DNA of 32,000 bases from Candidatus Saccharimonadota bacterium (GCA_025349965.1 CP075337.1:1-32000), one strand, 5' to 3'. Numbered from the stretch's first letter, positions 12,298 through 27,851 are shown. The notes: a model not told the origin generated them from the sequence alone. Numbers and translations are program-made.

Positions 12298-12696
12298 ATG
12301 AAGAAACTTACCCTCCTCAGTACAATTCTTTTCACAGTCGTCGCAACATTTTTAGCGATATCTACCCCCGTTTCCGCACAAGGAAGTATTCAGCAGGGTG
12401 TTGAAGCGGCGCATGGCAATGGTCAACCAACACAACTCTTCGGTGATGCAGGTGTAATCACCTCAGTCACTAACATTCTTCTTTTTATCGTGGGTGCACT
12501 TGCGGTGATTATGATTATTTGGGGCGGCATCCGCTACGCCATCTCTGGTGGCAATAGCTCGGCCGTCACTTCAGCAAAAAATACCATTATGTACGCACTT
12601 ATTGGGCTTATCGTTGCTTTCCTCGCCTTTGCAATGGTCAACTTCGTTCTATCAGCTATTGCGCCCGGTGGAAGCAGCGGCTTTACCAACGTTTAG
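12298..12696 (+). CDS. VirB2/TrbC-like T4SS pilin-family protein (orphan paralog P1)
   Basis: Signal peptide MKKLTLLSTILFTVVATFLAISTPVSA, then two hydrophobic helices around the loop IRYAISGGNSSAVTSAKN. About 75% identical by hand alignment to the core of ORF 15077-15499. I prefer the ATG at 12298 over the one at 12283. Confidence 0.8.
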   Translation: MKKLTLLSTILFTVVATFLAISTPVSAQGSIQQGVEAAHGNGQPTQLFGDAGVITSVTNILLFIVGALAVIMIIWGGIRYAISGGNSSAVTSAKNTIMYALIGLIVAFLAFAMVNFVLSAIAPGGSSGFTNV

Positions 12697-13697: not shown

Positions 13698-14384
13698 TTA
13701 TATCGGATGTGCTATCGCCATGACGTACACGCGCACCACACCTACCTGGCGCAGTACTTTCGCAACCTCATTAACTGTTGCGCCCGTGGTGATAATATCG
13801 TCTATTAAAATAACCGTCTCGGGTATTGAAGTGTTTGCTTTAATAGTGAACGAACCCCGCACCTGACGTTCGCGCTGAAGGCGACTTTCCGTATCATGTT
13901 GCACAAAAGACCCACTTCGCTCAACCAACCTTCTCATTTCGAGACCCCTCCTGCGGGCAAACGCTCGCGCAAGCAAGAACGCCTGGTCATACCCACGTCT
14001 TCTAATGCTCGCGCGAAGCGTTGGAATAGGTGTAACCACGGCGTCCGTAGGAAAAAATGGCGCACGGATTGCCAAAAGCTCGGCAAGTGGCTCGCTTACA
14101 AACCTATCATTACAAAACTTGAGTCCTTCAAGCGCCTTTTTAAGCCCATCCTCATAGCTTCCAATCATAATAACCTGTGTAATGTATGTGTCATGCTTCG
14201 CGCATACGCCGACAGGGGAGGGGGCGTTGCACCGAAAACAAACCGACAAAGAATCATATGTGATGTCATATTTACAATACTCGCAAAATGAAGCGCCTAT
14301 TTTCCCACAGAAATAACAGAGGTCTGGAGCAATCATTTGCAACAGTCGCTGAAGTATTGTAATTTTTACGTTTTCACCACCCAT
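13698..14384 (-). CDS. comFC: ComF-family phosphoribosyltransferase (ComFC-like competence protein)
   Basis: N-terminal Cys-rich zinc-finger-like region (CYFCGK..CEYCKY..CFRC) and a C-terminal PRTase motif VILIDDIITTGATVNE. Confidence 0.8.
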   Translation of the reverse strand: MGGENVKITILQRLLQMIAPDLCYFCGKIGASFCEYCKYDITYDSLSVCFRCNAPSPVGVCAKHDTYITQVIMIGSYEDGLKKALEGLKFCNDRFVSEPLAELLAIRAPFFPTDAVVTPIPTLRASIRRRGYDQAFLLARAFARRRGLEMRRLVERSGSFVQHDTESRLQRERQVRGSFTIKANTSIPETVILIDDIITTGATVNEVAKVLRQVGVVRVYVMAIAHPI

Positions 14385-14388
14385 TTAG

Positions 14389-14417
14389 TTGATTATACTA
14401 TGGAACACCGTTATAAT
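14389..14417 (+). promoter_or_regulatory. Sigma70-like promoter for hsp20 (TTGATT-17 nt-TATAAT)
   Basis: TTGATT at 14389-14394, a 17-nt spacer, and TATAAT at 14412-14417. It overlaps the divergent comFC -10 box (TATAAT on the - strand, 14397-14392). Confidence 0.55.
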
Positions 14418-14466
14418 ACGAAGGACTAATTTGTCAAATGAGCCTAGAGAAAAGTGGAGGATATCA

Positions 14467-14925
14467 ATGGCCCGTAAACAGAATGAAGATTTACTTATGG
14501 AAGACGAGCTTGCAGCTGCATTCCTAAGCGACGACGACCTAACGACCCAGCCTTCAGCTCCTGTAGCAGAAGAAGAATGGGACGATAGCCAAGACGATCT
14601 GCTTGGACAGCTCGCTGTAGACGTCTACGAAACAGAAGATAAGCTTGTTGTAAAAGCTCGCACCGCAGGTGTAAACAAGGAAGACCTTGATGTAAGCATC
14701 AGTGACGGTATTCTTACTATCAGCGGCACACTCAATAGTGGCGATGATGCTGAGGCTACTAACTGGCACATCCAAGAATGTTACTGGGGAGAGTTCAATC
14801 GTACACTTGCACTTCCTGTAACTGTAAAGGAAGACGAAGTAGAAGCAGTTCTCAAGGACGGCGTTCTCACCGTAAGCTTCAACAAAATCAAGCAAGAGCA
14901 GGCTAAGCGAATTCAGATTCAATAA
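14467..14925 (+). CDS. Hsp20 / alpha-crystallin family small heat-shock protein with an acidic N-terminal extension
   Basis: ATG at 14467 with GGAGG 7 nt upstream. The alpha-crystallin domain runs LAVDVYETEDKLVVKARTAGVNKEDLDVSI..GILTISG...FNRTLALP..V....VEAVLKDGVLTVSF. Confidence 0.88.
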   Translation: MARKQNEDLLMEDELAAAFLSDDDLTTQPSAPVAEEEWDDSQDDLLGQLAVDVYETEDKLVVKARTAGVNKEDLDVSISDGILTISGTLNSGDDAEATNWHIQECYWGEFNRTLALPVTVKEDEVEAVLKDGVLTVSFNKIKQEQAKRIQIQ

Positions 14926-14943
14926 GGCCTACCAAGCAAACAT

Positions 14944-14971
14944 AAAAGAGATACTATACAGTATCTCTTTT
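14944..14971 (+). terminator. Intrinsic terminator after hsp20
   Basis: An 11-bp stem, AAAAGAGATAC (14944-14954) pairing with GTATCTCTTTT (14961-14971), and a 6-nt loop. Confidence 0.65.
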
Positions 14972-15024
14972 ATGTTTGCCATCATCTTCCAAAGGCTCAG
15001 CGGTCCTCAGTCGGAAGATTAAAT

Positions 15025-15060
15025 AAAAAGCACCCCCGCTAGGCAGGGGTGCTTTTTATT
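15025..15060. terminator. Bidirectional intrinsic terminator (ends the pilin transcription unit on the - strand)
   Basis: Stem GCACCCC (15030-15036) pairs with GGGGTGC (15046-15052). An A5 tract precedes it and a T5ATTTT tract follows. Confidence 0.8.
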
Positions 15061-15076
15061 TTAGCTAGGCGACTGC

Positions 15077-15499
15077 TTATGCAGCCTTACCAACTTCGCC
15101 AAGCACCCAGTTCACAATCGCGAACGCAAGGAAGGCTACAACGAGACCAATAATCGCATACATGATAGTGTTCTTAGCAGACGTTACCGCGCTACTTGAG
15201 CCACCAGAGGTTGTGTAGCGAATACCACCCCAGATAAGCATGATCACACTAATCGCACCAATGATGAAGAGGAGGATGTTAACAACTGTCGTGAAGATAG
15301 AACCACTACCAAAGAGAGTAGTTGGTACATTGTCGTTCTTTGAACAGTCGATACCAGCGGCAACTCCACCTGTAGGGCCTGTGTCGCATCCGGTGCTGGT
15401 TGACTGCGCGCCTACAACACCCGCTGGCGTAAATGCCATAGTAACAGCAAGCGCAAGTACCGCTACAACACCTGCAAACTTTTTAATAAATGCTTTCAT
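15077..15499 (-). CDS. VirB2/TrbC-like T4SS pilin-family protein (paralog P2)
   Basis: Signal-peptide-like N-terminus and a Cys-bounded loop (GCDTGPTGGVAAGIDC). Two hydrophobic helices flank IRYTTSGGSSSAVTSAKN, and the C-terminus carries AFLAFAIVNWV. It has its own promoter and a strong terminator. Confidence 0.85.
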   Translation of the reverse strand: MKAFIKKFAGVVAVLALAVTMAFTPAGVVGAQSTSTGCDTGPTGGVAAGIDCSKNDNVPTTLFGSGSIFTTVVNILLFIIGAISVIMLIWGGIRYTTSGGSSSAVTSAKNTIMYAIIGLVVAFLAFAIVNWVLGEVGKAA

Positions 15500-15536
15500 G
15501 ATTATTTTATTTCCTTTCTTATAGAATCTACCGTTA

Positions 15537-15565
15537 TTTATACCATAATATTGCCACCCTGTTAA
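15537..15565 (-). promoter_or_regulatory. Sigma70-like promoter for P2 (TTAACA-17 nt-TATAAA)
   Basis: On the - strand, TTAACA lies at 15565-15560, followed by a 17-nt spacer and TATAAA at 15542-15537. AAGGAAA lies about 10 nt upstream of the ATG at 15499. Confidence 0.45.
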
Positions 15566-15588
15566 CCCTTTTGGGGTATTTTAGGGCA

Positions 15589-15969
15589 TTACTTAAACTG
15601 TGTAAGCACCCAGTTCACAATCGCAAAGGCAATGAACGCCACTACTAGTCCTACGATTGCATACGTGAGCATATTCTTCGCCTTTGAGACGCGACCACTA
15701 TCACCACCAGAGATGGAGTAGAGAATACCCGCAACTATAATCATCACGACAGACACAGCGCCTACTATATAAAGAAGTACGTTTACTATAGTGGTAAGAA
15801 TCGGCTCGACTTTTTCATCTTTCTTTTTACATACCTCACTTGTAGCATTTCCGCTACAAGCACCATCAAGGGGGTTGATCGCAGCCACCTCAGTAGCCGG
15901 TACTATTGCAGCAACCACACCAAAAAGAGCTATTGCGGCAGTTATTATATATGCTTTAATGTATTTCAT
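15589..15969 (-). CDS. VirB2/TrbC-like T4SS pilin-family protein (paralog P3)
   Basis: Signal-like N-terminus, Cys pair (ACSGNATSEVC), and the conserved core ILYSISGGDSGRVSKAKN...AFIAFAIVNWV. It starts 0 nt after the P4 stop. Confidence 0.85.
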   Translation of the reverse strand: MKYIKAYIITAAIALFGVVAAIVPATEVAAINPLDGACSGNATSEVCKKKDEKVEPILTTIVNVLLYIVGAVSVVMIIVAGILYSISGGDSGRVSKAKNMLTYAIVGLVVAFIAFAIVNWVLTQFK

Positions 15970-16257
15970 TTAAAATTTCCCTATAACAAAGTTAGTAATA
16001 GCAAATGCAGCCAGAACGATAATGAGCCCAACAACTGAATACAGAATCATATTCTTAGCCCTCGTTATACGACCCGCATCTCCACCAGAAATGGTGTACA
16101 TGAGGCCGGCGACGATAATCACAATCACCGCGACCGCGCCAGCAAGGAAATACACGATGTTAAGGACGTTTGTAAGCACTGAATCTCCACCTGTTGTTGG
16201 AACGCCCACCGTACCGGCATCTATTTTCTGCGCAACTTGTAGTAAAAAGTAGTTCAT
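15970..16257 (-). CDS. VirB2/TrbC-like pilin-family protein lacking a signal peptide (paralog P4)
   Basis: 95 aa. It has the same two-helix core (LMYTISGGDAGRITRAKN...AAFAITNFV), but no hydrophobic leader and no Cys pair. An upstream in-frame stop prevents any 5' extension. Confidence 0.8.
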   Translation of the reverse strand: MNYFLLQVAQKIDAGTVGVPTTGGDSVLTNVLNIVYFLAGAVAVIVIIVAGLMYTISGGDAGRITRAKNMILYSVVGLIIVLAAFAITNFVIGKF

Positions 16258-16259
16258 AT

Positions 16260-16691
16260 TTATTTAATAACCCCAAATATAAAGTTAACTATCGCGATTG
16301 CAGCCATGGCAATAACAAGCCCGATCACTGCATTGAGTATACTCTTGCGCGCCTTCTCAACAGTTCCCGGGTTACCACCACCGCTAATAAAAAGGAAGCC
16401 ACCATACAATATAAAGCCGACTGCAATATATACAACTACTACGAGAACCATTTCGATGATATTAAGAGCAAGTTTCCATACGAAGCCACCAATTTCATCG
16501 CTTCCACCGGAAGGCATTTCAACTGTACAGTCAGCGCCAGTCGTCAGCCCCCTGTACCATGTCGGCACCCCCAGGAGTCGATCCGTACATGCTGCAGATG
16601 CAGTAGGTGCAGGAGAGATAGTTGCCGCAAATGGCGCAGCGACAAAGAGCGCAAAAAAGCCAACTGCGATATATGCAATAAATTGTTTCAT
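16260..16691 (-). CDS. VirB2/TrbC-like T4SS pilin-family protein (paralog P5)
   Basis: Signal-like N-terminus, Cys pair (ACTDRLLGVPTWYRGLTTGADC), and core FLFISGGGNPGTVEKARKS...AAIAIVNFI. Its start overlaps the P6 stop by 1 nt (TAATG). Confidence 0.85.
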   Translation of the reverse strand: MKQFIAYIAVGFFALFVAAPFAATISPAPTASAACTDRLLGVPTWYRGLTTGADCTVEMPSGGSDEIGGFVWKLALNIIEMVLVVVVYIAVGFILYGGFLFISGGGNPGTVEKARKSILNAVIGLVIAMAAIAIVNFIFGVIK

Positions 16692-17110
16692 TAGTTAAAT
16701 ATACCCCCAGGAATAATAAAGTTGAGAAGTACATACATACCCGCAAAGGCTATGACACCTATAGCGACATTTGTAAATATACCGACAGCCTTCTTGACCT
16801 GTTCAGGATTACCCCCGGCAGAGGTGTAAAGGACTGCACCCCAGACGATACCACCAAGAGCGGCCACGCCGACACCAGCAGTAAGAATAGTAATTGCCAT
16901 GAGCAGGAGAGACCAGATGGCGCTTTTTTCAACACCACCCTTACCATCGTCATCGCCACAGCTAATAATAGCCGTCTCCTGTCCACCACACGTCTCCTGA
17001 GCAGAAACATATGCACCCTGGAAGACAGATATAGCCATAATCCCCGTTAGTGCTATTGTAATCGCGAGCGATTTTACTGCAAATCTGTTGATTTTTTGTT
17101 TTATCTTCAT
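16691..17110 (-). CDS. VirB2/TrbC-like T4SS pilin-family protein (paralog P6, most divergent)
   Basis: Signal peptide ending VSAQE, Cys pair (TCGGQETAIISC), and core VLYTSAGGNPEQVKKAV. It is the first gene of the - strand pilin operon. Confidence 0.8.
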   Translation of the reverse strand: MKIKQKINRFAVKSLAITIALTGIMAISVFQGAYVSAQETCGGQETAIISCGDDDGKGGVEKSAIWSLLLMAITILTAGVGVAALGGIVWGAVLYTSAGGNPEQVKKAVGIFTNVAIGVIAFAGMYVLLNFIIPGGIFN

Positions 17111-17117
17111 AATTACC

Positions 17118-17149
17118 TATATAGTATGATGTTTTAGCGTTTTCTGCAA
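17118..17149 (-). promoter_or_regulatory. Putative promoter of the pilin operon (TTGCAG-17 nt-TACTAT, or TATATA 7 nt from the ATG)
   Basis: On the - strand, TTGCAG lies at 17149-17144 and TACTAT at 17126-17121. The overlapping TATATA (17123-17118) ends 7 nt before the ATG at 17110. Confidence 0.45.
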
Positions 17150-17177
17150 TAACTTGGCTTAACTTAAGCGATATAAC

Positions 17178-17206
17178 TTGCAAAAATCAATATTATATGC
17201 TAAAAT
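17178..17206 (+). promoter_or_regulatory. Putative promoter of the T4SS machinery operon (TTGCAA-17 nt-TGcTAAAAT, extended -10)
   Basis: TTGCAA at 17178-17183, a 17-nt spacer ending in TGC, and TAAAAT at 17201-17206. It lies back-to-back with the pilin promoter. Confidence 0.5.
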
Positions 17207-17322
17207 AAAATTACCAATTCAGCATTTTCGAGTTAAGAAGCTCGAAGGGCAAGCTGACGCGGTTGTTATTACGCCCAAGCCGACAGTGCTTTAATGTCGC
17301 CAAGTGCGAGAGGAACACCAAC

Positions 17323-18357
17323 GTGTCCGAACTCCCCAAAGAAACACCTATCAATCCTGGCATTTCGTCAGTAACTTCGCGTGAGCAGGGTGGTAGTAGT
17401 GTAACCGAACAAACAATGCCTCATTCCGGAGGCCGTAATGTACCAGAGCAACTTCGCGAACAACCAGTTCGTGAGTTTGACAACACCTCTTTAGGAGAGG
17501 CTCTCGATCAAGGGTATCTAGAAGTACCAACCTCACCATCACCAATCCCAGAGGCACAGCCAGCTGTCACTGCACCTGAAAAAAAGAAACGCAATAAGCT
17601 TCTTATAGGCGCCTCCGCAGGACTTGCCGGCGTAGCTATTGTCGCAGCTTCAGTTATCGGAATTAACGCCGCAAACTCAAACACCTCAGGTGAGGATCCT
17701 GAGGGTCCAAAAGCTGATCCAAAGGGAACAACCGAAGTTACTCCTGAGCCAAAACCCGTCGAAACAGAGAAGTCTTTTGAACAGCAGGTTAATGAACTTA
17801 AGATTGAGGCGGGTCTTTCGCCAGAAGAATACGTAGATACATTAATTGCAAAGCGAATGGTAGACTGGGAGTTTGCAGGTAAAGAACAGTACTGGAAGGT
17901 GGCGGGTGATGGCAGTAATAGCGTTGATGATATCAATACAGCGCGCAAAGCTATCGTAGCTGAACAAAACCGCGTCTTCGCAAATGCTTTATTTATTCCA
18001 GGATGGGAAAACACCGAACTTGCAAGTATAGCCGAGCGCCGAAAAATTAACCAAGAAGCAACTCTAGATACATGGGGTCGCACAAAAGCAAATATTGAAT
18101 TTGCCGGCGACACACGTGAAGAATGGCAGACCGGCATGGTTATTGAAAGGGTTGAACTTCTTGAAGAAAACCCCGATACCGGAACTCGAAAGTTTTTTAT
18201 TGCAGGGTACGAGACAAATAATGGCGACAGGGCGGCATATCAAAGCGTAAACGCTAAAAATAACGGAGCACCATGGAGCTTCACCTTCACGACGCAAGTA
18301 GTTGACGGAACGGAATATATAGCTGAGTGGTCGAACACAGAATCGCCAGCTCATTAG
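17323..18357 (+). CDS. Hypothetical bitopic membrane protein, first gene of the T4SS operon (positional candidate for a VirB8/PrgL-like component)
   Basis: I prefer the GTG at 17323, which has GAGGAA 7 nt upstream; the ORF track starts at a TTG at 17263. The protein has a disordered N-terminus of about 95 aa, one TM helix (LLIGASAGLAGVAIVAASVIGI), a P/E/K-rich linker and a globular C-terminal domain of about 190 aa. Confidence 0.7.
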   Translation: MSELPKETPINPGISSVTSREQGGSSVTEQTMPHSGGRNVPEQLREQPVREFDNTSLGEALDQGYLEVPTSPSPIPEAQPAVTAPEKKKRNKLLIGASAGLAGVAIVAASVIGINAANSNTSGEDPEGPKADPKGTTEVTPEPKPVETEKSFEQQVNELKIEAGLSPEEYVDTLIAKRMVDWEFAGKEQYWKVAGDGSNSVDDINTARKAIVAEQNRVFANALFIPGWENTELASIAERRKINQEATLDTWGRTKANIEFAGDTREEWQTGMVIERVELLEENPDTGTRKFFIAGYETNNGDRAAYQSVNAKNNGAPWSFTFTTQVVDGTEYIAEWSNTESPAH

Positions 18358-18376
18358 GATTGGCTACAGTTTACAC

Positions 18377-18416
18377 TGCATAATGTCTATGCTTAAATAA
18401 GCATAGACATTATGCA
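18377..18416. repeat. Perfect 19-bp inverted repeat (TGCATAATGTCTATGCTTA-aa-TAAGCATAGACATTATGCA)
   Basis: Read directly from the sequence. The right arm contains the ATG (18412-18414) of the VirB6-like ORF. There is no flanking T-tract on either strand. Confidence 0.9.
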
Positions 18417-21231
18417 AAAACAGACCAAACCCTTACGAGATGAAAATCCACATTTATCAAAGGTGGGTTTTCTTGTTTCTTCTTTGCATAGAAAGAAATC
18501 ATTACTTAGTCGCATCAAGATTAGTATACTTCTTGTAATATTCTCTCTCGTTACAACAATTTCTTTTTCTTCCCCAATTCATGCAAAACCATATACTGAT
18601 GAGGATATCTCAACACGAGCCATGGCATATGAGAGTGTCCTTATTCTTCGTCAGTGCCTTGCAAATAACAGTATCCATACAAAGAACACCAAATCCAACT
18701 TAAGTGATGAATCTCCACTAGAAACCGGCACGGGAAGGATGTATGTCTCATGGGACCCTGCGGTAGTAAAATACCACCCTACGCTCAAGGAAGACAACGA
18801 AGGCGCATGTGGAGAAGGAAAGGGCGCCACAAGAGGAGCGCTAAAGCGTCTCGGTATTAATGAGGTTGAGTTTATTTGCCAACTTGGCGGAAAGCGTACA
18901 TATTACGATCGAGATTCTCAGAAAACCACCACTACCGACTGTTTAGAGGGTTCGGGTAATGTTACGGCTTCAAATATTACAGACAAGCAAATCAATGAGG
19001 CTGTAAAAAAACTTACAAAATTCACAGGGTTTGACCCAGCAAACCCCGGCGATGCGGTGCGCTACCAACGTAGTTTTAATATTCTTAAAAACGGTTGCTT
19101 CGGTGGAAGTTCAATAACTAAAGAAATTTACGACAAAGAACCTAAGGGGAAGCGCTGGTCAATTAACGTATACCCGGATGGTAAGGAGTATTACAGGGGT
19201 GAACCCGGAGGGGGGAGTAATCATAACCAAAAACCTCGCGGCGCAAATGGCGACGAAAAAGGTGAAGTTAACTGTATAGAGTACTGGAATCGAACCAATA
19301 CATACTTTTCAGCATATGTGGCGTATAAAAATAACTTATCACCAGAGGAGCGAGCTGCCGAGGAGGCGAAAGAGAATATAAGTCCTGAAGCAGGAGATGA
19401 CGGACAAACGTCGTGTCGCATCGAGGGTGTGGGGTGGATTATTTGTCCAGTCCTTAATTTCCTTGGTGGCGTCACGGATGCTGCTTATGGCGGTGTTAAA
19501 GAACTTCTAAAAACACCTGCAATGGTAACTACCGCAGGCAGTAGCACAGAAGGTGTATATATCGCATGGCAAACCATGAGAAGTGTTGCCAATGTAGCTT
19601 TCGTAATCGCCTTTCTTATAATTATATTCTCTCAACTTACTTCAGCAGGGGTGAGTAACTATGGCATTAAGCGAATGCTACCGCGTCTTATTGTTGCGGC
19701 CATTCTAGTGAACGTTTCATTCTTTATCTGTGCAATAGGGGTAGACTTGTCAAATATTATTGGTTCAAATATCGTCAATCTCTTTGATGGAATTGCCAAA
19801 AGTATGCCGACACCACAGTGGAAGGATACAGGAGATTTCGGTGGCAGTGCTACTGGAGAGGGATGGCTTGGAATTATTGGTATCATCATTGCAGGTGGTG
19901 CTATAGCTATCACCACTGTATACATAGGCCTTGCAGCACTATTACCATTCCTTTTGGCAGCAATTCTTGCTATCTTAACAGTGTTTATCGTACTCACACT
20001 GCGTCAAGCGCTCATTATCCTACTTATTGTCATATCCCCACTTGCTTTTGTCGCTTACCTTCTCCCTAATACCGAAAGCTGGTTTAATCGCTGGAGAAAG
20101 TTATTCACCACCCTGCTCCTCATGTTTCCAATTATTGGAATTATCTTCGGCGCGTCAGCACTTGCATCTCAGGTTATCATGAGCTCTTCGGATAATATTT
20201 TTGTTCAACTATCTGGGGCAGCAATCGCAATCATCCCACTTGCACTCACGCCGGTTGTTATGAAGACTGCAGGAGGCGTACTTGGGCGAGTAGGCGCCTT
20301 TGTTAATAACCCAAACAAGGGGCCGTTTGATCGAATGCGAAAAGGTGCTGAATCATTAAGGAAAGATCGGCAAAACATCCGCAATATGCGCGCACTCAAC
20401 GGAAAAGGCCTGCCGGGAAGGACTGGTTTTACTCGATGGAAGGCACGGCGAGGCGCAATCACGGCTGGCCGAGAAGGTGAACTCAATAGGGCTAGATCTG
20501 AATACATTAGCGATGCTATGCAGAATAGCGCAACTTTCGCTAACTCGGTAGCTGGTGGCACCTCTGCCTTTGGCCAGATTCGTAGCGGCGCCGGTGCTGA
20601 CGCCACTCAACGAGCTCTTGCAAGTGCAATCAACACCACCTCAAAACTTGAGCTTGAAGAAATCACTGCAGCTGGAGTTGTTCTGAAAAATGCAAAGCTT
20701 GACCAAGCTCAAGTTAGAAGCTTATCAAACGGGGGAAGCGCAACAACATCTAGTGGCATGCAGCTCAACGGCAGCGGTGCGATGCGGGCAGCTGCAGTCC
20801 AGCAAGCGGTTGCATCAAATGACATATCTCAAATCAATGACCTATGGGATCAGTCTCGATCATGGGGTAATGATAAAGAAGGTAATACCTTGAGGCAAAC
20901 TCTCGCTGACAGCCTTGCATCGTCGTCATCTCGACCAGGATACATCGGTCAGGGCGCTCTTGCCGGTTTACGCACAGGCAGTAACGATAGTATTGAAAAT
21001 ACTATAAAGGAAGCTGTAAAGGCGAATGCCTACTCTCCGGAAAAAATTGCCACTGCAGATAAGGATGAATTAGCAATGGTTACCAAGACAATTAGTGGAG
21101 ATTCAGGACTCACCGACGACCAAAAGCAATCCTTCATGCTTAATGCTGAGAAGGCGCTTACTGACGAAAACCTTAATGTTAAAATATCTAAGAACCGTGA
21201 TGAGATCAAAAAGATATTGGATATTTCATAA
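18412..21231 (+). CDS. VirB6/TrbL-like polytopic T4SS membrane protein with a large Cys-rich ectodomain and a long C-terminal tail
   Basis: 939 aa. A signal/anchor segment (ISILLVIFSLVTTISFSSPIHA) is followed by an ectodomain of about 300 aa with 8 Cys. A block of at least 6 TM helices spans about aa 390-610, followed by a polar tail of about 330 aa. The start codon is uncertain because the ATG lies inside the hairpin. Confidence 0.7.
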   Translation: MQKQTKPLRDENPHLSKVGFLVSSLHRKKSLLSRIKISILLVIFSLVTTISFSSPIHAKPYTDEDISTRAMAYESVLILRQCLANNSIHTKNTKSNLSDESPLETGTGRMYVSWDPAVVKYHPTLKEDNEGACGEGKGATRGALKRLGINEVEFICQLGGKRTYYDRDSQKTTTTDCLEGSGNVTASNITDKQINEAVKKLTKFTGFDPANPGDAVRYQRSFNILKNGCFGGSSITKEIYDKEPKGKRWSINVYPDGKEYYRGEPGGGSNHNQKPRGANGDEKGEVNCIEYWNRTNTYFSAYVAYKNNLSPEERAAEEAKENISPEAGDDGQTSCRIEGVGWIICPVLNFLGGVTDAAYGGVKELLKTPAMVTTAGSSTEGVYIAWQTMRSVANVAFVIAFLIIIFSQLTSAGVSNYGIKRMLPRLIVAAILVNVSFFICAIGVDLSNIIGSNIVNLFDGIAKSMPTPQWKDTGDFGGSATGEGWLGIIGIIIAGGAIAITTVYIGLAALLPFLLAAILAILTVFIVLTLRQALIILLIVISPLAFVAYLLPNTESWFNRWRKLFTTLLLMFPIIGIIFGASALASQVIMSSSDNIFVQLSGAAIAIIPLALTPVVMKTAGGVLGRVGAFVNNPNKGPFDRMRKGAESLRKDRQNIRNMRALNGKGLPGRTGFTRWKARRGAITAGREGELNRARSEYISDAMQNSATFANSVAGGTSAFGQIRSGAGADATQRALASAINTTSKLELEEITAAGVVLKNAKLDQAQVRSLSNGGSATTSSGMQLNGSGAMRAAAVQQAVASNDISQINDLWDQSRSWGNDKEGNTLRQTLADSLASSSSRPGYIGQGALAGLRTGSNDSIENTIKEAVKANAYSPEKIATADKDELAMVTKTISGDSGLTDDQKQSFMLNAEKALTDENLNVKISKNRDEIKKILDIS

Positions 21232-21234
21232 CCC

Positions 21235-22239
21235 ATGGCCTCCTACAAAGTACCCCAAGACGTCGAAGCAGATGATAAACTCATTGGCCCGTTTAGCTTT
21301 CGCCAGTTTATCTACCTGATCATTGTTGCGCTCGCGATTGCGCTTGCATGGGGATTGGCACAGCTTTTTATTGGACTTGCCGTTATTCCACTCCCGATCA
21401 TCCTTCTTTTTGGAGCACTCGCACTTCCGTTAAGGAAGGATCAACCGATGGAAATCTACCTCGCGGCAATGGTTTCCTTCTTTCTCAAGCCGCGAAAGCG
21501 CCTATGGGATCCTGAAGGGATGGAATCAACTATTGAGATTACTGCTCCAAAAACAGTGGAGGTAAGGCGCACAAAAGATTTATCCGAAGGTGAAGCGGTT
21601 GAGCGGTTGAGTTATCTTGCAAACCTTGTTGATACGCAAGGCTGGTCAATTAGGGGAGTACAGGGAGCTCAGAATATTGCCATGAACACAGATGTTGTTC
21701 TGGAAGCGCAAGGCGCAGAAGATGTGCTTGATACTAATACATCAATTGCCAATAACTTCAGCCAGATGATGCAGGCAAGTACGCAGCGCATGCGCGAAGA
21801 GGCGAAGGAGCGAATGATGGCAGCGACTTCAATCCCAGAACCTCAACAAACAGCACCGCTCGCACCCACTCCAACTATTGCCACTGTCCAAAATGCAGTC
21901 ACAGCAGCCTATAATACACCCGCCCAGCCCCAGCAGGTCACGCCAACTCAACCACAGCAAATCGAAGCACCTGAAGTCGTGCCAGTATTCAACCCGTATC
22001 CAAATATCCAGCAGTCGGTTATTCAGCCGTTAAGCGAAGAGGATAGAGTGTCGGTGCCAGCAGAAGCGCCAAAAGAAGAGCCAACTCCCGCAAGCACTAG
22101 CGAAACAGCGCCTTCTACTGATATAATAGAACTTGCAAATAACTCTGATTTATCAATTCAGACTATTGCTCATGAGGCAAATCGTCTAAAAAAGAAATCA
22201 GAGGAAGAATCTGACGAAGTCGTTATTTCGCTTAGATAA
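21235..22239 (+). CDS. PrgI/VirB3-like T4SS membrane protein with a C-terminal extension of about 220 aa
   Basis: The N-terminus YKVPQDVEADDKLIGPFSFRQFIYLIIVALAIALAWGL plus a second TM helix matches the PrgI-family signature as I remember it (VP-x-D...DK-x-x-G-x-x-x-x-RQ plus a TM hairpin). The rest is charged and P/Q/T-rich. Confidence 0.7.
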   Translation: MASYKVPQDVEADDKLIGPFSFRQFIYLIIVALAIALAWGLAQLFIGLAVIPLPIILLFGALALPLRKDQPMEIYLAAMVSFFLKPRKRLWDPEGMESTIEITAPKTVEVRRTKDLSEGEAVERLSYLANLVDTQGWSIRGVQGAQNIAMNTDVVLEAQGAEDVLDTNTSIANNFSQMMQASTQRMREEAKERMMAATSIPEPQQTAPLAPTPTIATVQNAVTAAYNTPAQPQQVTPTQPQQIEAPEVVPVFNPYPNIQQSVIQPLSEEDRVSVPAEAPKEEPTPASTSETAPSTDIIELANNSDLSIQTIAHEANRLKKKSEEESDEVVISLR

Positions 22240-22274
22240 ACAGTCAAACTAAAGGGGTTGGGCGCACATAGGGT

Positions 22275-23204
22275 ATGCAACCAGATAATTCACAGTATAA
22301 CCAACCGGGTGTTCCTGCAGGACAGCCCTCTATACCTGATATGACAGGTGGTGCTCCTTCATACCCACAACAGGGAGTTCCCCAGCAACCTCAAGCGTAC
22401 CCTCAGCAGGTAGTACAACCTCAACCAGTAGCACCTCAGCCTGTCGGTGCTCAAGGAGCAGCAACTACTGCTGAAGAAAAAGAGACACCTAAAAATCCTA
22501 ACTCTACTCAAAACTCATTACAGCTCTCTGAAATTCGCGACAGTATGGTTATTATGAATGACGGCTCTTTTCGCGCTGTCATTGCTTGTAAATCCATTAA
22601 CTTTGACCTCATGAGCTCACGCGAGAGAGAAGGGGTTGAGTACAGCTACCAGAACTTTATTAACTCTCTTAACTTTCCTGTTCAGATTCTCGTCCGCTCT
22701 CAGCGCGTAGATATCGGACCCTACATTGAGAAATTGGTTGACACACGCCGCTCTCAAGACAATATGCTTCTTGGTGTATTGATGGATGACTATATAAACT
22801 TTATTGACACCCTTGCAGAAGAAGCAAACATTATGGAGAAGTCATTCTACATCACCGTTCCGTTCTTTCCTGAAGGAGATTTACAGAACCTTAAGGCACA
22901 AGCTGTCGGCTTCTTTGGTAAGCTTTTTGCTAAGCCACAAAATACGGTTACAAAAATTGACTCTGCTGCATACCAAAAAGCCAAAGATGAAATCGCCAAC
23001 CGTGTAAATGTCGTACAGGCAGGGTTATTCCAGATTGGCGTACAAAGCGCACAGCTCGACACTCGGGCGCTTGGTGAACTTTATTACAGTTACTACAACC
23101 CGGACACAGCACTACGCCAGCCACTTGGTGATTTTGAAAATATCGCAACCACCTTTGTCAAAAAGGCAGAACCGACACAAGGTCCTACAGGAGGAGTTCA
23201 GTAA
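22275..23204 (+). CDS. Hypothetical protein with a P/Q-rich N-terminus and a domain patterned like a VirB4 N-terminal domain
   Basis: 309 aa, no TM helix and no NTP-binding motif. Its stop overlaps the VirB4 ATG (TAATG at 23202-23206). Its motif order runs parallel to the pre-ATPase region of the downstream VirB4 (hand comparison only). Confidence 0.7.
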   Translation: MQPDNSQYNQPGVPAGQPSIPDMTGGAPSYPQQGVPQQPQAYPQQVVQPQPVAPQPVGAQGAATTAEEKETPKNPNSTQNSLQLSEIRDSMVIMNDGSFRAVIACKSINFDLMSSREREGVEYSYQNFINSLNFPVQILVRSQRVDIGPYIEKLVDTRRSQDNMLLGVLMDDYINFIDTLAEEANIMEKSFYITVPFFPEGDLQNLKAQAVGFFGKLFAKPQNTVTKIDSAAYQKAKDEIANRVNVVQAGLFQIGVQSAQLDTRALGELYYSYYNPDTALRQPLGDFENIATTFVKKAEPTQGPTGGVQ

Positions 23205-25024
23205 TGGCTAAAAAACGAAGCGCTATTGATATTGCAGCCGAGCAACGCGCTCGCGAGCAAACCGAGGTAGAACAGGCGTTTCTTAAGGGTGTATCAACAC
23301 TCCGTGATTTAATTGCGCCGAGTAGCCTTGAAATCCATTCATCCCACTTTAGACTTGGTACAAAATACGGGCGAACGCTGTATGTGTACGGATATCCGCG
23401 CGAAATCTACACCGGCTGGCTTAGTTCGATTATTAACATTGACGAAGTACTCGACGTCAGCATGTATATTTATCCTGTTGAGAGTCAGGTGGTACTTAAT
23501 AACCTCCGCAAAAAGGTAACTCAGCTTGAAGCAAGTTACGCTATTAATAGTGAAAAGGGTAAGGTTCGCGACCCAGCGCTCGAAGCCGCCATTAGTGACG
23601 CGGAAGAACTTCGCGACAAGATCCAAATCGGAGCAGAGCGCTTTTTCCGTTTTGGGCTCTATGTCACACTTTGGGCCGACAGTATGGACGAGCTTAACTT
23701 TGTTCAACAAAAAATTGAAACTATTTTTGGTCAGCAAATGGTGTTTAGTAAGGTTGCGTCCTCACAGCAAGAACAGGGACTTAACAGTACTGTTCCGCAA
23801 ATGTCTGACGAGCTTCAGATTCGTCGCAACATGAACACCGGAGCTATCAGTACAAGCTTCCCGTTCACTAGCGCCGACCTTACAGATAACTCAGGTATTC
23901 TCTACGGTATTAATATGCATAATAATGGACTTGTTATCTTTGATCGCTACCGTCTTGAAAACGCAAATGCGGTCGTCTTCGCAAAGTCTGGTGCAGGTAA
24001 GTCATTCACAGTGAAACTTGAAGCACTCCGCAGTATGATGATGGGTACAGAAATTATTATCATTGACCCTGAAAACGAATACCAAAAACTTGCCGAAGCA
24101 GTAGGGGGCGCGTACGTCCGGCTCAGTCTCAACTCACAGGTGCGCATTAATCCATTCGACCTACCGCGTGTCATTGACAGTGACGAGGCTGATGATGCAC
24201 TACGAGCAAACCTTGTAACACTTCACGGGCTCTTCCGCCTCATGCTTGGTGGTTCGCAAACTACCGCTAATGGTTCGGTTATGTCCGGCCTCACCCCTGC
24301 GGAAGAGGCGGATCTTGACCAAGCGCTTATCGACACCTATGCACGCGTAGGAATTACAAGCGACCCGCTCACGCACAACTCACCACCGCCAACCATCGCC
24401 GATCTTTACGACACCCTTCTTCATATGGGCGGGAGCGGACCAGCCCTTGCACAGCGTCTTCGTAAGTACACGACTGGTACATTCGCTGGTATTTTCAGCC
24501 AGCAGTCAAACATTGATATCAATAACCCAATGGTTGTATTTAATATTCGCGACCTTGAAGACGAACTTCGCCCTGTTGCGATGTATATCGTCCTGAGCCA
24601 CATATGGAATATTACTCGCACCATTCAGAAGAAACGTATGCTTATCGTCGATGAAGCGTGGCAACTCATGAAATACGAAGACTCTGCTAACTTCCTCTTT
24701 AGCCTTGCAAAGCGTGCTCGTAAATATCACCTTGGACTCACAACCATCACACAAGATGTCGAGGACTTCATTAGCAGCAAGATGGGCCGTGCCATTGTCG
24801 CCAATAGCTCAATTCAACTCCTCTTAAAGCAATCTTCAAGTGCCGTTGATGTCCTCTCTGATGTATTTAAGCTTACTGAAGAAGAAAAAAAGCGTCTTTC
24901 AAACTTCCCAATTGGGCAAGGACTATTCTTTGCAGGACAAAGTCACGTTCATATCCAGATTCAAGCAAGCGCAACAGAACACCAACTTATCACTACTAAT
25001 CCGAATACTAAAGCCGGCTCGTAG
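23204..25024 (+). CDS. virB4: VirB4-family T4SS ATPase (TraE/TrsE/PrgJ-like)
   Basis: 606 aa. N-domain GTKYGRTLYVYGYPREIYTGWL, Walker A FAKSGAGKSF (about 23981-24010), IIIDPENEY, Walker B MLIVDEAW (about 24638-24661), and TTITQDVEDF. Confidence 0.88.
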   Translation: MAKKRSAIDIAAEQRAREQTEVEQAFLKGVSTLRDLIAPSSLEIHSSHFRLGTKYGRTLYVYGYPREIYTGWLSSIINIDEVLDVSMYIYPVESQVVLNNLRKKVTQLEASYAINSEKGKVRDPALEAAISDAEELRDKIQIGAERFFRFGLYVTLWADSMDELNFVQQKIETIFGQQMVFSKVASSQQEQGLNSTVPQMSDELQIRRNMNTGAISTSFPFTSADLTDNSGILYGINMHNNGLVIFDRYRLENANAVVFAKSGAGKSFTVKLEALRSMMMGTEIIIIDPENEYQKLAEAVGGAYVRLSLNSQVRINPFDLPRVIDSDEADDALRANLVTLHGLFRLMLGGSQTTANGSVMSGLTPAEEADLDQALIDTYARVGITSDPLTHNSPPPTIADLYDTLLHMGGSGPALAQRLRKYTTGTFAGIFSQQSNIDINNPMVVFNIRDLEDELRPVAMYIVLSHIWNITRTIQKKRMLIVDEAWQLMKYEDSANFLFSLAKRARKYHLGLTTITQDVEDFISSKMGRAIVANSSIQLLLKQSSSAVDVLSDVFKLTEEEKKRLSNFPIGQGLFFAGQSHVHIQIQASATEHQLITTNPNTKAGS

Positions 25025-25043
25025 CGTATACTAAAAGGTAGTT

Positions 25044-27851
25044 ATGGCGCTATTATCACCAGACGCAGACCAAGATGAAGCACTGAATAAAGGTCAACAG
25101 AATTATGATGACCGTTTTGCTTCGATTGCACACGCGGAAGAAAATGCCACTTCTAGTAGAGCTGACGGCGAATTAGATAAACCCACAAGCTTAGATGACG
25201 AGGCCGGAGATTGGAACTCTACTTTCGGAGAGAAGAAAGAAAGTGCCACATCAAAAGGGCGTCGCTTTTTTAGTAAAAACTTCTTAAAAAAATCCTCCCC
25301 TCTACTTGGTGCTGGGGGTATTATTGCATTGCTTGGATTTGTATTCACAGGACTAACCGCGCCTAGTCTTCTTTTTGTTCAAATGAAAGAGACGATGGTG
25401 GATAGATTCAATACCCAGCTCGCAACCATGGAGGCTCGGTCTAATAAACTTCTACACTCAAAGGTTAACAATTCCACAAAGGGATACTGTGGTGCAAAGA
25501 TTACTATACGCTGTAAGTTTAGCAGCCTTCCTGAAAGGCACTTAAAAAAGCTCAAAGCTGCAGGTATTACATTTGCAAATGAATCAAAAAATGCCCTTGG
25601 GAGAACAACGTTTACTGCATACATCATAGACGGCAAGGAAATACCCGCCCAAGACTTCAATAGAGAAGTTGCATCAAATGCAAAACTAAGATCAGCCCTC
25701 CGACAAGCTTATAACCCAAAATTTGGTGGTTTTATTGGTAAGGGCTGGCAAAAAATTGCCTCCCGGTTCAAAATAAAAAAACAAATGCCCGAATTTGACG
25801 CAGAGAAAGATCCGAAGGGTGCACAAACAAAGCTTAATAAGGTGGGCAAAGAGGGTGTTGCTGCGATCAACGCCAACTCAAAACTAAAAGCAGGCGAGTC
25901 GACACCACTGGGTTGTGACGGCGACTGCAACACGCTCTCAGACGACAACATAAAAGCAATTGATAATACATCAAAGTCTATCGAGGAAGCAGGTAAAAGC
26001 GGCCAAGCAGCTCAAGTCGCCCGGAAGACCCTGAGTGGTGTAGGTCTAAACAGTGTGACGTCGGCTATTAAAATTACTGGGCCCATGGATAGTGCTTGTA
26101 TGGTTTATGGCACAGCAAACACACTGTCGTTTGCTATTAAAACAATAAGAAATGCACAGATGATCCGCTTCGCAATGGTCTTTCTTTCCACTGCCGATAC
26201 TATCAAAGCCGGTCAAAACCCAGATCCTAAGAATATAGAATTCCTAGGAAAAAATCTCACTAATACAATAAAAGACCCTGACAACCCAAGCAAAACTCTT
26301 GTAGGTAGTGCAACAGATTCCTTTGGATATAAATACGCCGCCTACGGTGATGCGACAGCATCTAACAAAAGTCTTAATATATCAAACAGGTTTAAGGCAG
26401 GTGGAGGCTTCTCTGGTGATATCGACGCAACACTTAATACGATCTACTCTTTTGTACCTGGTGGAAAATCATCGTTACGTGGAACTTGTGGTGTACTAGG
26501 TAACCCATTTGTACAAGCCGGATCCCTTATTGTAGGTATTGCTTCACTATTTGTTCCGGGCGCCAATGTTGGAAAGATTATAGTCTCTGGAGTTGCAGCT
26601 GCAGCTGTTGGCGTTGCGATGGCTATATTACCAGATCTAATAGCGGACACTCTAGCAGGAAGTGTTACCGACGATATTTCAGGTGAAGAGTCTGGAAACG
26701 CCATCGCCTCAGGTTCGGGCGCGATGATGTCTTCTCTCGCCACTAGTAATGGTGTCGGTTATATGAACAAAGACCAGGCTCTTGCATACAACGGCACACT
26801 TACAGAAACCAAGAATGACTATATTGCGATGGAACGCTCAGAAAAAAGTCCATTTGACCCAACAAGTCCGCACACTTTTGTCGGGTCGATGGTTTCAAAC
26901 GTCATACCTATTATTAATTCAGCAGATAGCAACCCGGTCACGGTAATTGGAAGCTTTTTATCCAGTTCACTTCAAGGCATCCTCCCTAAGGCTTCAGCTC
27001 TCACCAACGAACAGTACTCTAAAGTGTTAGATAGCTGCTCAGACTTAGATCTTATCGATGCAGGCGTTGCTACAGACCCATTCTGTAATACCATTAACGG
27101 AATTCCGCCTCAGTATCTCGGCAAAGATCCTATTAAGGTTATCGATGAGCTTGGAAGTGATATCAGCGAGGATGGAAAACCTCAAGGTGAATATAAAGAA
27201 TTTGTAAGTAAGTGTATAGAATCAGAAGATCCTTTCGGATACCATGACGGCGGGAGTGGTATGTCTTTCGACCCAGATCGCGCAAAGGAATGTATTATTA
27301 ACGACTCAAATGCAAATTACTACCTCAACTACGTAGATAGTCGAATAGAAGAAAATATGGACTATGAGAGTAAATCTCAACAAAAAACAAGCTCTGGAGA
27401 ATGGGTTAACCCTCTATTGAATACTGTCCCCTGGGGAACTTACACAAGTGGTAGAAGTCATGGAAAGGGGGCGATTGATATGCAAGCAACTACCGGTACG
27501 CCAGTCCACGCAGCCTCTTCGGGAACTGTTATTGCAGCAGGCGAGGACTCGAGTTACGGAAACTTTGTGACTATTCAACACAGTGATGGCTCAGTAACTC
27601 ATTACGGTCACTTCGACAAGACACCTTTAGTTAAAACGGGTGACACGGTTGCGACCGGTCAACAAATAGGTGTAGCGGGAAATACCGGTGACTCAGACGG
27701 GGCTCATCTTCACTTTGAAGGAAGAACTTCCCCTGAATGGGGTTCAATCGTACCAACATACACGTTTATGAAAGAGCGGGGTGTTGATCTCGGACCATGT
27801 AGTGTAACATCTTACTGGGAAGGTCCATGTAGCCTCTCCGGATACCAGTAA
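25044..27851 (+). CDS. Large membrane protein with a C-terminal M23 (LytM-type) peptidoglycan endopeptidase domain; presumed T4SS wall hydrolase (VirB1/PrgK role)
   Basis: 935 aa. Acidic N-terminus, a TM helix (LLGAGGIIALLGFVFTGLTAPSLLFV) and internal hydrophobic helices (SLIVGIASLFV, IIVSGVAAAAVGVAMAILP). M23 motifs HGKGAID and GDSDGAHLHFE lie near the C-terminus (about 27440-27725). Confidence 0.85.
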   Translation: MALLSPDADQDEALNKGQQNYDDRFASIAHAEENATSSRADGELDKPTSLDDEAGDWNSTFGEKKESATSKGRRFFSKNFLKKSSPLLGAGGIIALLGFVFTGLTAPSLLFVQMKETMVDRFNTQLATMEARSNKLLHSKVNNSTKGYCGAKITIRCKFSSLPERHLKKLKAAGITFANESKNALGRTTFTAYIIDGKEIPAQDFNREVASNAKLRSALRQAYNPKFGGFIGKGWQKIASRFKIKKQMPEFDAEKDPKGAQTKLNKVGKEGVAAINANSKLKAGESTPLGCDGDCNTLSDDNIKAIDNTSKSIEEAGKSGQAAQVARKTLSGVGLNSVTSAIKITGPMDSACMVYGTANTLSFAIKTIRNAQMIRFAMVFLSTADTIKAGQNPDPKNIEFLGKNLTNTIKDPDNPSKTLVGSATDSFGYKYAAYGDATASNKSLNISNRFKAGGGFSGDIDATLNTIYSFVPGGKSSLRGTCGVLGNPFVQAGSLIVGIASLFVPGANVGKIIVSGVAAAAVGVAMAILPDLIADTLAGSVTDDISGEESGNAIASGSGAMMSSLATSNGVGYMNKDQALAYNGTLTETKNDYIAMERSEKSPFDPTSPHTFVGSMVSNVIPIINSADSNPVTVIGSFLSSSLQGILPKASALTNEQYSKVLDSCSDLDLIDAGVATDPFCNTINGIPPQYLGKDPIKVIDELGSDISEDGKPQGEYKEFVSKCIESEDPFGYHDGGSGMSFDPDRAKECIINDSNANYYLNYVDSRIEENMDYESKSQQKTSSGEWVNPLLNTVPWGTYTSGRSHGKGAIDMQATTGTPVHAASSGTVIAAGEDSSYGNFVTIQHSDGSVTHYGHFDKTPLVKTGDTVATGQQIGVAGNTGDSDGAHLHFEGRTSPEWGSIVPTYTFMKERGVDLGPCSVTSYWEGPCSLSGYQ

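Follow-up and report, generated by a model that had tools for sequence, protein, structure and literature searches.

A compact, origin-proximal type IV secretion system locus with a pilin array in the Saccharibacteria episymbiont TM7i

A type IV secretion system (T4SS) locus is encoded in a 32,000-nucleotide stretch of DNA (GCA_025349965.1, CP075337.1:1-32000, hereafter the window) from Candidatus Saccharibacteria bacterium TM7i, which has been cultivated as an episymbiont on Leucobacter (TM7i isolation paper); two of the encoded proteins are 100% identical to KI440_00120 and KI440_00135 of this strain. It is the origin-proximal T4SS with a pilin array that is already known from Saccharibacteria, and not a new system, here in a compact version. 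The reading that we favour, and consider probable, is that of a chromosomal machine of the Patescibacteria clade, related to the monoderm MPF-FATA systems and distinct from a mobile element, which builds a tube of pilin subunits to the host cell and does not carry conjugative DNA.

Gene content and chromosomal setting

The locus comprises a plus-strand operon of six genes, spaced by 54, 3, 35, -1 and 19 nt on the map of open reading frames (ORFs), five small minus-strand genes (15077-17110) that diverge from it, and a sixth small gene on the plus strand further to the left (Table 1). The coordinates and gaps of the operon are exactly those claimed in the initial annotation of this DNA. Its last gene ends 0 nt from recF (27852-28889, minus strand), the two stop codons adjoining, and dnaN and dnaA follow; profile searches uphold all three identities, and with them the initial statement that the locus lies among core genes. 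On the left it is bordered by tRNAs and core genes, and in L001, a contig near-identical to the window (the compared loci are labelled L001 and so on), the right flank continues with rnpA, yidC and jag. GC content is even across the locus, with no compositional anomaly.

Profile searches of the tested ORFs against Pfam (local copy) and NCBIfam found no gene for a type IV coupling protein (T4CP, the VirD4 type), relaxase, integrase, or replication or partition protein (Rep, Par) in the window, as had been reported, and a repeat search in the window found no att-like or long direct repeats flanking the locus. The same searches upheld the VirB4 ATPase and the pilin-like families. Because the ORF map, the profile matches and the window-wide negatives all agree with the initial annotation, the observation itself is confirmed. 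With no coupling protein or relaxase linked to the locus, conjugative DNA is therefore an unlikely cargo; proteins or host-derived molecules are more likely.

Table 1. Features of the TM7i T4SS locus and its neighbourhood (positions in the window; a dot marks features without strand)
Feature	Position	Strand	Evidence and remarks
VirB8-like bitopic protein (moderate confidence)	17323..18357	+	disordered N-terminus, one transmembrane helix (~94-112), NTF2-like C-terminal domain 150-340
Extended VirB6/TrbL-like polytopic protein	18412..21231	+	939 aa; topology, orthologue profile matches, BLASTP links
PrgI/VirB3-like membrane protein	21235..22239	+	PF12666 46.1 bits, residues 5-90; ~240-aa low-complexity tail
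TrsD-like protein, VirB4 N-terminal domain as separate polypeptide	22275..23204	+	stop overlaps virB4 start by 1 nt
VirB4 ATPase without N-terminal domain	23204..25024	+	NF045971 (CD1110 family) 384 bits, profile positions 174-735 of 752
Membrane-anchored hydrolase protein	25044..27851	+	935 aa; PF01551 Peptidase_M23 at residues 810-894, 92.7 bits; HLH motif present
pil5, promoter-proximal pilin, distinct class	16691..17110	-	PF18895 25.3 bits; CGG...C motif, C-terminal LNFIIPGG(I/L)FN
pil4, distinct orthologous pilin class	16260..16691	-	PF18895 37.8 bits; motif C-x2-R-L/F-L-G-x-P-x-W-Y/F-R-G-L...D-C
pil3, short pilin class	15970..16257	-	95 aa, no signal peptide; PF18895 40.5 bits; TrbC 27.1 bits
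pil2, pilin	15589..15969	-	PF18895 46.7 bits; TrbC 23.2 bits
pil1, last pilin gene of array	15077..15499	-	PF18895 46 bits; weak TrbC match
pil0, outlying sixth VirB2-like pilin	12298..12696	+	PF18895 45.2 bits; signal peptide and two hydrophobic helices
Divergent intergenic control region, pilin operon versus machine operon	17111..17322	.	promoter-like TTGCAA-17-TAAAAT with TG at 17178-17206; consensus match
Perfect 19-bp palindrome, predicted RNA hairpin, over virB6 start codon	18377..18416	+	in 54-nt spacer before virB6
GC-rich hairpin with T-runs on both strands	15016..15066	.	inverted repeat; sequence read by eye
Hsp20 small heat-shock protein	14467..14925	+	PF00011 72 bits; position conserved; ML1 orthologue SEML1_0020
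ComFC/GntX-like gene	13698..14384	-	TIGR00201 comF E 1e-25; position conserved; ML1 orthologue SEML1_0021

Components of the machine

Conservation among the machine proteins is highest for VirB4 and falls through the TrsD-like protein, PrgI, VirB6 and the hydrolase protein to the VirB8-like protein. VirB4 exceeds the NF045971 cut-off of 325 bits and also matches PF19044 (104 bits) and the VirB4 C-terminal domain structure PDB 4AG5 (E 7.8e-51), and the Walker A (GAGKS) and Walker B (LIVDEAW) motifs on which its initial assignment rested are visible in the translation. The PF12666 match likewise bears out the PrgI/VirB3-like call.

Two ORFs had been left without assignment, and both can now be placed. 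The product of 22275-23204 is the N-terminal domain of VirB4, detached as a polypeptide of its own. It is so read because it gives weak NCBIfam matches to TrsD and to the N-termini of VirB4 models at corresponding positions (NF041427, NF045975 E 7e-4; TIGR00929 E 0.033), because the VirB4 profile match begins at position 174, because the protein and its homologues carry a precomputed database match to PF26593 (TraC-like), and because BLASTP links it to the C-terminal half of a PrgI-TrsD fusion from Streptomyces (E 8e-14) and to a separate protein of Pontibacillus (E 2.7e-26). Homologues of this protein number more than 7,700, and TrsD homologues have been described as the VirB4 N-domain (Quinonero-Coronel 2025, PMC12102498). 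A search of the PDB with its alignment profile returned nothing meaningful.

The second ORF, 17323-18357, is called VirB8-like. Its residues 150-340 are modelled by AlphaFold2 with a predicted local distance difference test (pLDDT) score above 90, with helices lying against a sheet of four strands, and in a Foldseek search of the PDB the top match was TraH of pIP501 (5AIW, E 6.7e-4, probability 0.97), with the VirB8 domain of PrgL from pCF10 (7AED) at rank 5 and CagV at rank 50. Because the TM-scores are low, the call is made with moderate confidence. Modelling followed by fold comparison had been proposed for both ORFs; for the TrsD-like protein, modelling gave a structure of low confidence. 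The VirB8-like family evolves fast, with 10 homologues among 5.8 billion proteins; direct tblastn detected it in two of the 51 loci longer than 20 kb described below. An iterated profile, which was still growing at its fourth round so that some drift is possible, places the family immediately before virB6 in the majority of 14 related loci. Its ML1 counterpart, SEML1_0012, is an NTF2-like protein (ECOD e4ec6D1) and is non-essential (Wang 2023, PMC10633639).

The 939-aa VirB6-like protein has a predicted signal anchor, an extracytoplasmic domain of ~340 aa, five or six transmembrane helices (residues 392-624) and a hydrophilic tail of ~315 aa. It has no direct match in the local Pfam copy, and a PDB search with the VirB6 alignment profile found nothing meaningful; a 91%-identical orthologue, however, carries a precomputed match to PF19590 (TrbL_3). 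Among 33 aligned counterparts at the VirB6 position (30 from Saccharibacteria and three from Streptomyces, Embleya and Pontibacillus loci), four match PF04610 (TrbL) and one TrbL_4, and BLASTP connects the TM7i protein with those of the Streptomyces and Pontibacillus loci. Orthologue, counterparts and topology give the original VirB6/TrbL-like assignment indirect support. The precomputed PF26593 and PF19590 matches were not reproduced with the local Pfam copy, even at E = 5, so it is the orthologues, NCBIfam and the BLASTP links that carry the calls of VirB6 and TrsD.

The palindrome over the virB6 start codon has a calculated RNA folding energy of -30.2 kcal/mol (z = -7.7). L001 retains it through one compensatory T>C/A>G change, and it is not recognisable at the aligned positions of more distant loci. 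Loci L043-L082 (rumen, gut and oral lineages) have just one VirB6, which is longer (1120-1190 aa), and lack a separate ~300-aa ORF upstream of it.

The pilin genes

Each of the six small proteins has a match to PF18895 (T4SS pilin), as the initial description of five tandem, divergent pilin-like genes and a sixth at 12298 would predict. Five lie above the gathering score of 26.6 bits (37.8-46.7 bits) and the product of 16691-17110 is 1.3 bits below it; their scores against TrbC (PF04956), 18-27 bits, are under the Pfam cut-off of 27.9. Hydropathy analysis gives a leader peptide and two hydrophobic helices in each protein except the leaderless pil3, and in the alignment the loop between the helices is conserved in all six (Y-x2-S-G-G-(D/N/S)-x3-V-x2-A-K). 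Pairwise identity among the pilins of the window is 25-57%. A PDB search with the pilin alignment profile gave no meaningful sequence match. Four of the six pilins have a pair of Cys residues, 11-20 residues apart, in a variable stretch that runs from the leader peptide to the first hydrophobic helix. In a filament arranged like the solved pili, this stretch would face outwards.

The pilins fall into classes of unequal distinctness. The pil4 class is positionally stable across species with large bit-score margins, and the order and individual motifs of pil4 and pil5 are kept across the closer genera, with pil5 orthologues in L003, L004, L007 and L011. The short leaderless class of pil3 is also found in L003, L007 and L082. 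By alignment and bit scores, pil0 to pil3 resemble each other and are weakly separable. Differentiated roles fit these classes better than simple antigenic variation does, because the pil4 and pil5 classes are kept and because each arrayed pilin is essential in Southlakia epibionticum ML1, a result to which a caveat of transposon polarity applies. In the rumen, gut and oral lineages of L043-L082, the promoter-proximal pilin of the pil4 class is enlarged to 220-380 aa.

An automated scan for promoters and terminators performed no better than on shuffled sequence, and the elements named here were read by eye. An 89-nt spacer (15500-15588) containing a promoter-like TTAACA-17-TATAAA sets pil1 apart from the translationally coupled pilins upstream, and a comparable spacer of 83 nt precedes SEML1_0019, the last pilin gene of ML1. 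The gene pil1 may encode the major, separately expressed pilin. The sequence of the GC-rich hairpin beyond pil1 suggests a bidirectional terminator at which the pilin operon would end. The outlying pil0 is the positional orthologue of SEML1_0024, and in about 20 loci a plus-strand pilin gene is kept at this place beyond comF and hsp20.

The hydrolase protein and its interchangeable head

The operon closes, 19 nt beyond virB4, with the gene for the 935-aa membrane protein in which a terminal M23 peptidase had been recognised; the Pfam match and predicted transmembrane segments (87-114 and 489-530, with a positively charged stretch before the N-terminal helix) agree with that description. Membrane-anchored and encoded within the operon, it has the features of a VirB1-like wall hydrolase of T4SSs. 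It consists of a conserved, Cys-rich N-terminal module of ~785 aa and a head at the extreme C-terminus. Compared with an M15-headed relative, homology is unbroken over residues 4-784 (47% identity, Cys positions kept) and ends sharply at ~784. Of 32 positional orthologues, eight carry a VanY/M15 head, six M23, three a C39-like domain, two Exo_endo_phos, one CHAP and one C70, with none detected in the rest, and the head stood at the extreme C-terminus wherever its position was checked. Examples of this head swap are the TM7i protein and those of L003, L007, L022, L024 and L060, and the pattern recurs in 78 database homologues (P0131-P0208).

The head may be matched to the peptidoglycan of the host. 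A bolder proposal, which we put forward as possible but doubtful, is that the outward-facing 785-aa module with an interchangeable head, M23 in TM7i and M15/VanY, C39-like, CHAP or EEP in relatives, suited to the peptidoglycan chemotype of the host, is a device for breaching the host wall, and that together with a heteropolymeric pilus of several non-redundant pilin classes it forms a feeding tube through two Gram-positive walls. If this were so, the Pontibacillus look-alike without a T4CP described below would show that non-conjugative pilus machines occur outside episymbionts.

Conservation across Saccharibacteria and essentiality in ML1

At least 582 relatives of the TM7i VirB4 were detected when one genome per species was scanned. 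The best 80 are 79-91% identical and nearly all labelled as Saccharibacteria. Across the loci compared for gene order, VirB4 identity is 79-100%. Those longer than 20 kb number 51, and their gene order is: a pilin gene (+), comF (-), hsp20 (+), three to six pilin genes (-), one or two virB6 genes, prgI, trsD, virB4, a gene for a hydrolase protein of ~800-1000 aa, some further genes, (recF), dnaN and dnaA. The virB6-prgI-trsD-virB4 core is present in 51 of 51, and the flanking genes are present where the fetched stretch reaches. A comparison of synteny, one of the checks suggested initially, thus shows gene order and chromosomal position to be kept in dozens of species.

The TM7i locus maps gene for gene onto SEML1_0007-0024 of ML1, whose T4SS comprises SEML1_0006-0019. 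Common to both are dnaA-dnaN-recF, the hydrolase protein, VirB4, the TrsD-like protein, PrgI, VirB6, the NTF2/VirB8-like protein, the pilin array, Hsp20, ComF, a tRNA-Ser and the outlying pilin. In ML1, transposon sequencing has shown that the hydrolase protein (SEML1_0007), VirB4 (0008), the TrsD-like protein (0009), PrgI (0010), both VirB6 proteins (0011 and 0013), the arrayed pilins (0014-0019) and Hsp20 (0020) are essential, while the NTF2-like protein (0012), ComF (0021) and the outlying pilin (0024) are not (PMC10633639). The system is thereby shown, for the ML1 orthologues, to be needed for epibiotic growth on the host. The two loci differ in that TM7i has one virB6 gene and five arrayed pilins where ML1 has two and six, and in the hydrolase head, which is M23 in TM7i and M15B in ML1. 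TM7i also lacks counterparts of SEML1_0004-0006 (prealbumin-like, PEGA and double-lysozyme/Cys-protease proteins), and it is because of this that its hydrolase gene adjoins recF with 0 nt between them. In ML1 and most other loci, the interval from the hydrolase gene to recF holds the lysozyme, PEGA and prealbumin-like genes.

Proposed mechanism and alternative explanations

The steps proposed here are drawn by analogy with R388 and pCF10. Sec would insert most pilins, of several differentiated orthologous classes, into the membrane; this route is extended to most pilins and not to pil3, because the pil3 class has no signal peptide. PrgI/VirB3 and the detached TrsD-like N-domain would hold VirB4 at the membrane, where it would pull pilins out of the bilayer and stack them on the extended VirB6 platform, with the VirB8-like protein as a wall-side scaffold. 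A VirB2-type tube through the cell wall would result, and the large outward-facing protein would open peptidoglycan, whether its own or that of the host, by means of its hydrolase head. On contact, the tube could then attach the cell to its host bacterium or serve as a conduit between them. The parts list, the conservation of the locus and its fixation in the chromosome are established; that the pilins polymerise and what the hydrolase acts on are inferred, as are the two terms by which the system was initially described, filament-forming and non-conjugative.

Several points weigh against this reading. No pilus or channel has been seen for this system, and the direction of transport and the cargo are likewise inferred. 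Essentiality was measured in ML1 and not in TM7i, and polar effects of transposon insertions could make individual pilin genes seem more essential than they are. The VirB8-like call is a fold match with TM-scores of 0.33-0.46, a range in which many generic NTF2 folds score alike, and the AlphaFold2 model of the TrsD-like protein, built from a 32-sequence alignment, is of low confidence (mean pLDDT 45.5). As the search for a coupling protein covered the 32-kb window, a VirD4-like gene may lie elsewhere in the TM7i genome; in ML1 such a gene exists far from virB4 and is non-essential (PMC12102498).

An ordinary integrative and conjugative element (ICE), with coupling protein, relaxase, integrase and att sites just outside the window, would resemble the nearest plasmid-borne relatives of the locus, which are of conjugative type, with a T4CP gene after virB4 and a relaxase-like gene in Embleya or a serine recombinase in Streptomyces. 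Such an element is nevertheless highly improbable here: core genes and tRNAs close the locus on both sides, its position and gene order are shared by dozens of species, GC content is uniform and flanking repeats are absent from the window, the slot after virB4 is filled by the hydrolase protein in Saccharibacteria, and, of the 109 relaxase genes counted in Patescibacteria, only 15 are close to virB4 (PMC12102498). Genomic context and synteny effectively exclude it. A machine for DNA uptake, akin to Helicobacter ComB or archaeal Ced and working with the adjacent ComFC, is a somewhat better candidate, though still improbable. In its favour, comFC is conserved inside the locus, VirB4 weakly matches CedB and CedD, and Saccharibacteria are naturally competent (PMC10633639). 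However, the Ced matches reach 33-43 bits against cut-offs of 600-700, comF is non-essential in ML1 where the T4SS is essential, deletion of comEC ends competence with viability kept, and competence depends on type IV pili, so that the genetics of ML1 disfavour a competence machine and this explanation was rejected.

An alternative closer to the favoured one, unlikely in our judgement yet a real alternative that remains, accepts a genuine T4SS and takes the pilins as a short wall-spanning stalk or channel lining, which may be ancestral in monoderm conjugation systems, in place of an extended filament; the machine would mainly inject Sec-independent effectors or toxins into the host. Single PF18895 genes in conjugative actinobacterial loci are consistent with it, as is the existence of T4CP-less T4SSs for effectors or toxins (Ptl, Brucella VirB; PMC12102498), and the polymorphic enzymatic heads, with Exo_endo_phos in two of 32, resemble polymorphic effectors. 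Against it, no effector candidate or recruitment ATPase is linked to the locus, three to seven differentiated pilin genes are hard to explain by channel lining alone, and the models of ter Beek 2025 favour true pili. A relation to pertussis toxin has also been proposed, in which the small proteins would be Sec-secreted toxin subunits exported by the T4SS, as by Ptl (McLean 2020, PMC7427843); most of them do carry signal peptides, and the gene arrangement is like that of ptx/ptl (PMC7427843). This idea now has very little probability and is superseded by the pilin assignment, as six of six match the T4SS pilin family with a two-helix hairpin and conserved loop, and identity to pertussis toxin S1 is 11% (PMC7427843).

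Neighbouring genes and other features of the window

The comFC-hsp20 pair (13698-14925) stands between the outlying pilin and the array, a position kept in more than 20 Saccharibacteria species; the ComFC/GntX-like gene is probably a conserved neighbour and not a part of the machine. A perfect 20-nt hairpin follows hsp20 (14936-14979). Other housekeeping ORFs of the window, besides ComFC and Hsp20, encode a Mur ligase, TsaD, FemAB, ValRS, RlmH and a HIT protein, and there are three tRNAs. ORFs 9288-9620, 10591-11043, 11303-11992 and 12749-13426 have no Pfam match. Two of these, 11303-11992 (-) and 12749-13426 (-), encode membrane proteins with Pro/Gln-rich N-termini and no family match; the former recurs beside the outlying pilin in seven other loci, and the latter is detectable in the near-identical contig only.

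Perfect and one-mismatch DnaA boxes (TTATCCACA) cluster at 30042-30151, in the dnaA-dnaN spacer, and at 31788-31901, upstream of dnaA. The clustering is local, the total count in the window not being above chance, and the clusters mark the replication origin. In L001, a small uncharacterised ORF is called between dnaN and dnaA. At the other end of the window, 1836-4580 (-) encodes a 914-aa GDSL lipase-like protein that begins and ends with hydrophobic segments and whose GDSL lipase/acylhydrolase domain (residues 383-681) is split. No NCBIfam family matches this protein, which might scavenge lipids as an enzyme of the envelope.

Relation to published work

Much of what is described here is in print. 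McLean 2020 already showed the conserved region. Wang 2023 remarked that the system is composed like Gram-positive ones, that its pilins are unusual and that it has neither coupling protein nor relaxase. The Patescibacteria survey of Quinonero-Coronel 2025 described TrsD, PrgI and VirB6 and counted 441 arrays of 2-11 pilin genes; it found relaxases to be rare and the locus to lie near dnaA. A 2025 FEMS review (PMC12857230) presents the system as a possible pilus conduit. The initial inference of a domesticated T4SS with VirB2-like pilins is favoured by the evidence and by this literature; the combination is not a new one, these four papers having described it. As PMC10633639, PMC12102498 and PMC12857230 cover the system, the inference repeats published hypotheses. 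The TM7i isolation paper does not mention a T4SS, and TM7i is not mentioned in the examined supplements to the Patescibacteria survey (PMC12102498).

The additions made here are modest: the assignment of two ORFs, the compact TM7i version, the swap of hydrolase heads and a Firmicute look-alike without a T4CP. Neither the swap of heads nor the presence of homologous loci with pilin genes in Actinomycetota and Bacillota is stated in the literature examined, and these loci bear on the origin of the pilin and on whether the loss of conjugation is specific to episymbionts. The wider significance, also already published, is that this is the only T4SS reported to be essential to its bearer and a leading candidate for host exploitation by ultrasmall episymbionts. 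Being cultivable on Leucobacter and having the most compact locus among those compared, TM7i is a convenient minimal model.

Comparison with known systems

Like the Patescibacteria-clade T4SSs (PMC12102498), the TM7i locus has a CD1110-type VirB4 with TrsD and PrgI beside it, a divergent pilin array, no linked relaxase or T4CP and a position near dnaA; ML1 shares the lack of these linked genes and the place adjacent to the origin. Further afield, the nearest plasmid-borne relatives of its VirB4 are in Actinomycetota and Bacillota, at 36-38% identity. The loci of Streptomyces sp. BHT-5-2 p1 (L083, 11580-21170) and Embleya sp. NBC_00896 (L084, 7595-18438), with VirB4 proteins 38% identical, are of conjugative type: each has one PF18895 pilin gene (71 bits in Streptomyces) directly upstream of a VirB6-like gene, a single protein in which PrgI is fused to the TrsD-like part, and a T4CP gene directly after virB4, with the relaxase-like gene of Embleya and the serine recombinase of Streptomyces nearby. 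On an 898-kb replicon of Pontibacillus sp. ALD_SL1 (L085, NZ_CP062975.1, 7477-17030), a CD1110-family VirB4 (36% identical) is preceded by two tandem PF18895 pilins, a TrbL/VirB6-like, a small VirB3-like and a separate TrsD-like protein, and followed by a 1050-aa NlpC/P60-M23 protein, and no T4CP or relaxase gene was found within 12 kb. Unlike TM7i, this is a free-living Firmicute whose locus is flanked by flagellar and chemotaxis genes and not near an origin, and the N-terminal part of its hydrolase protein (NlpC/P60) has no detectable homology to the Saccharibacteria module. Because of these three loci, it is suggested that the pilin was inherited with the monoderm T4SS and not borrowed from diderm systems, and that T4CP-less versions are not confined to episymbionts.

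The machine parts agree, as initially stated, with the reduced set of Gram-positive systems. With the monoderm MPF-FATA systems (pCF10 Prg, pIP501 Tra, CD1110-type ICEs) and with both actinobacterial loci, TM7i has in common the CD1110-family VirB4, PrgI/VirB3 and a VirB6-like protein, and monoderm conjugative T4SSs also have VirB8-like NTF2 proteins (TraH, PrgL) and a membrane-anchored wall hydrolase. The accompanying statement that Gram-positive systems lack VirB2-type pilins is outdated, since a VirB2-like small protein stands beside virB6 in monoderm conjugative T4SSs too (PrgF; PF18895 in Streptomyces and Embleya, as in Pontibacillus). PrgF of pCF10 is VirB2-like and essential, about 95% of the conjugative plasmids analysed from Gram-positive bacteria have VirB2-like candidates, and a VirB2 pilus on VirB6 in a Gram-positive system has been argued from high-confidence AlphaFold models, mutagenesis and lumen labelling (ter Beek 2025, December preprint). 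Conjugative monoderm systems, however, have a coupling protein directly after virB4, a relaxase, a recombinase, a mobile element as carrier and usually a single functional pilin, whereas the Saccharibacteria locus has no DNA-processing genes, is chromosomally fixed and has multiplied its pilin gene.

Among diderm T4SSs, Bordetella Ptl and Brucella VirB resemble the TM7i system in having no coupling protein, and Bartonella and Anaplasma in their tandem, divergent virB2 paralogues (PMC12102498). They differ from it in their VirB7, VirB9 and VirB10 architecture and in not being essential for viability. Pilin variation in diderm systems has been ascribed to immune evasion, whereas in Saccharibacteria the pil4 and pil5 classes are kept across genera and each arrayed pilin of ML1 is individually required.

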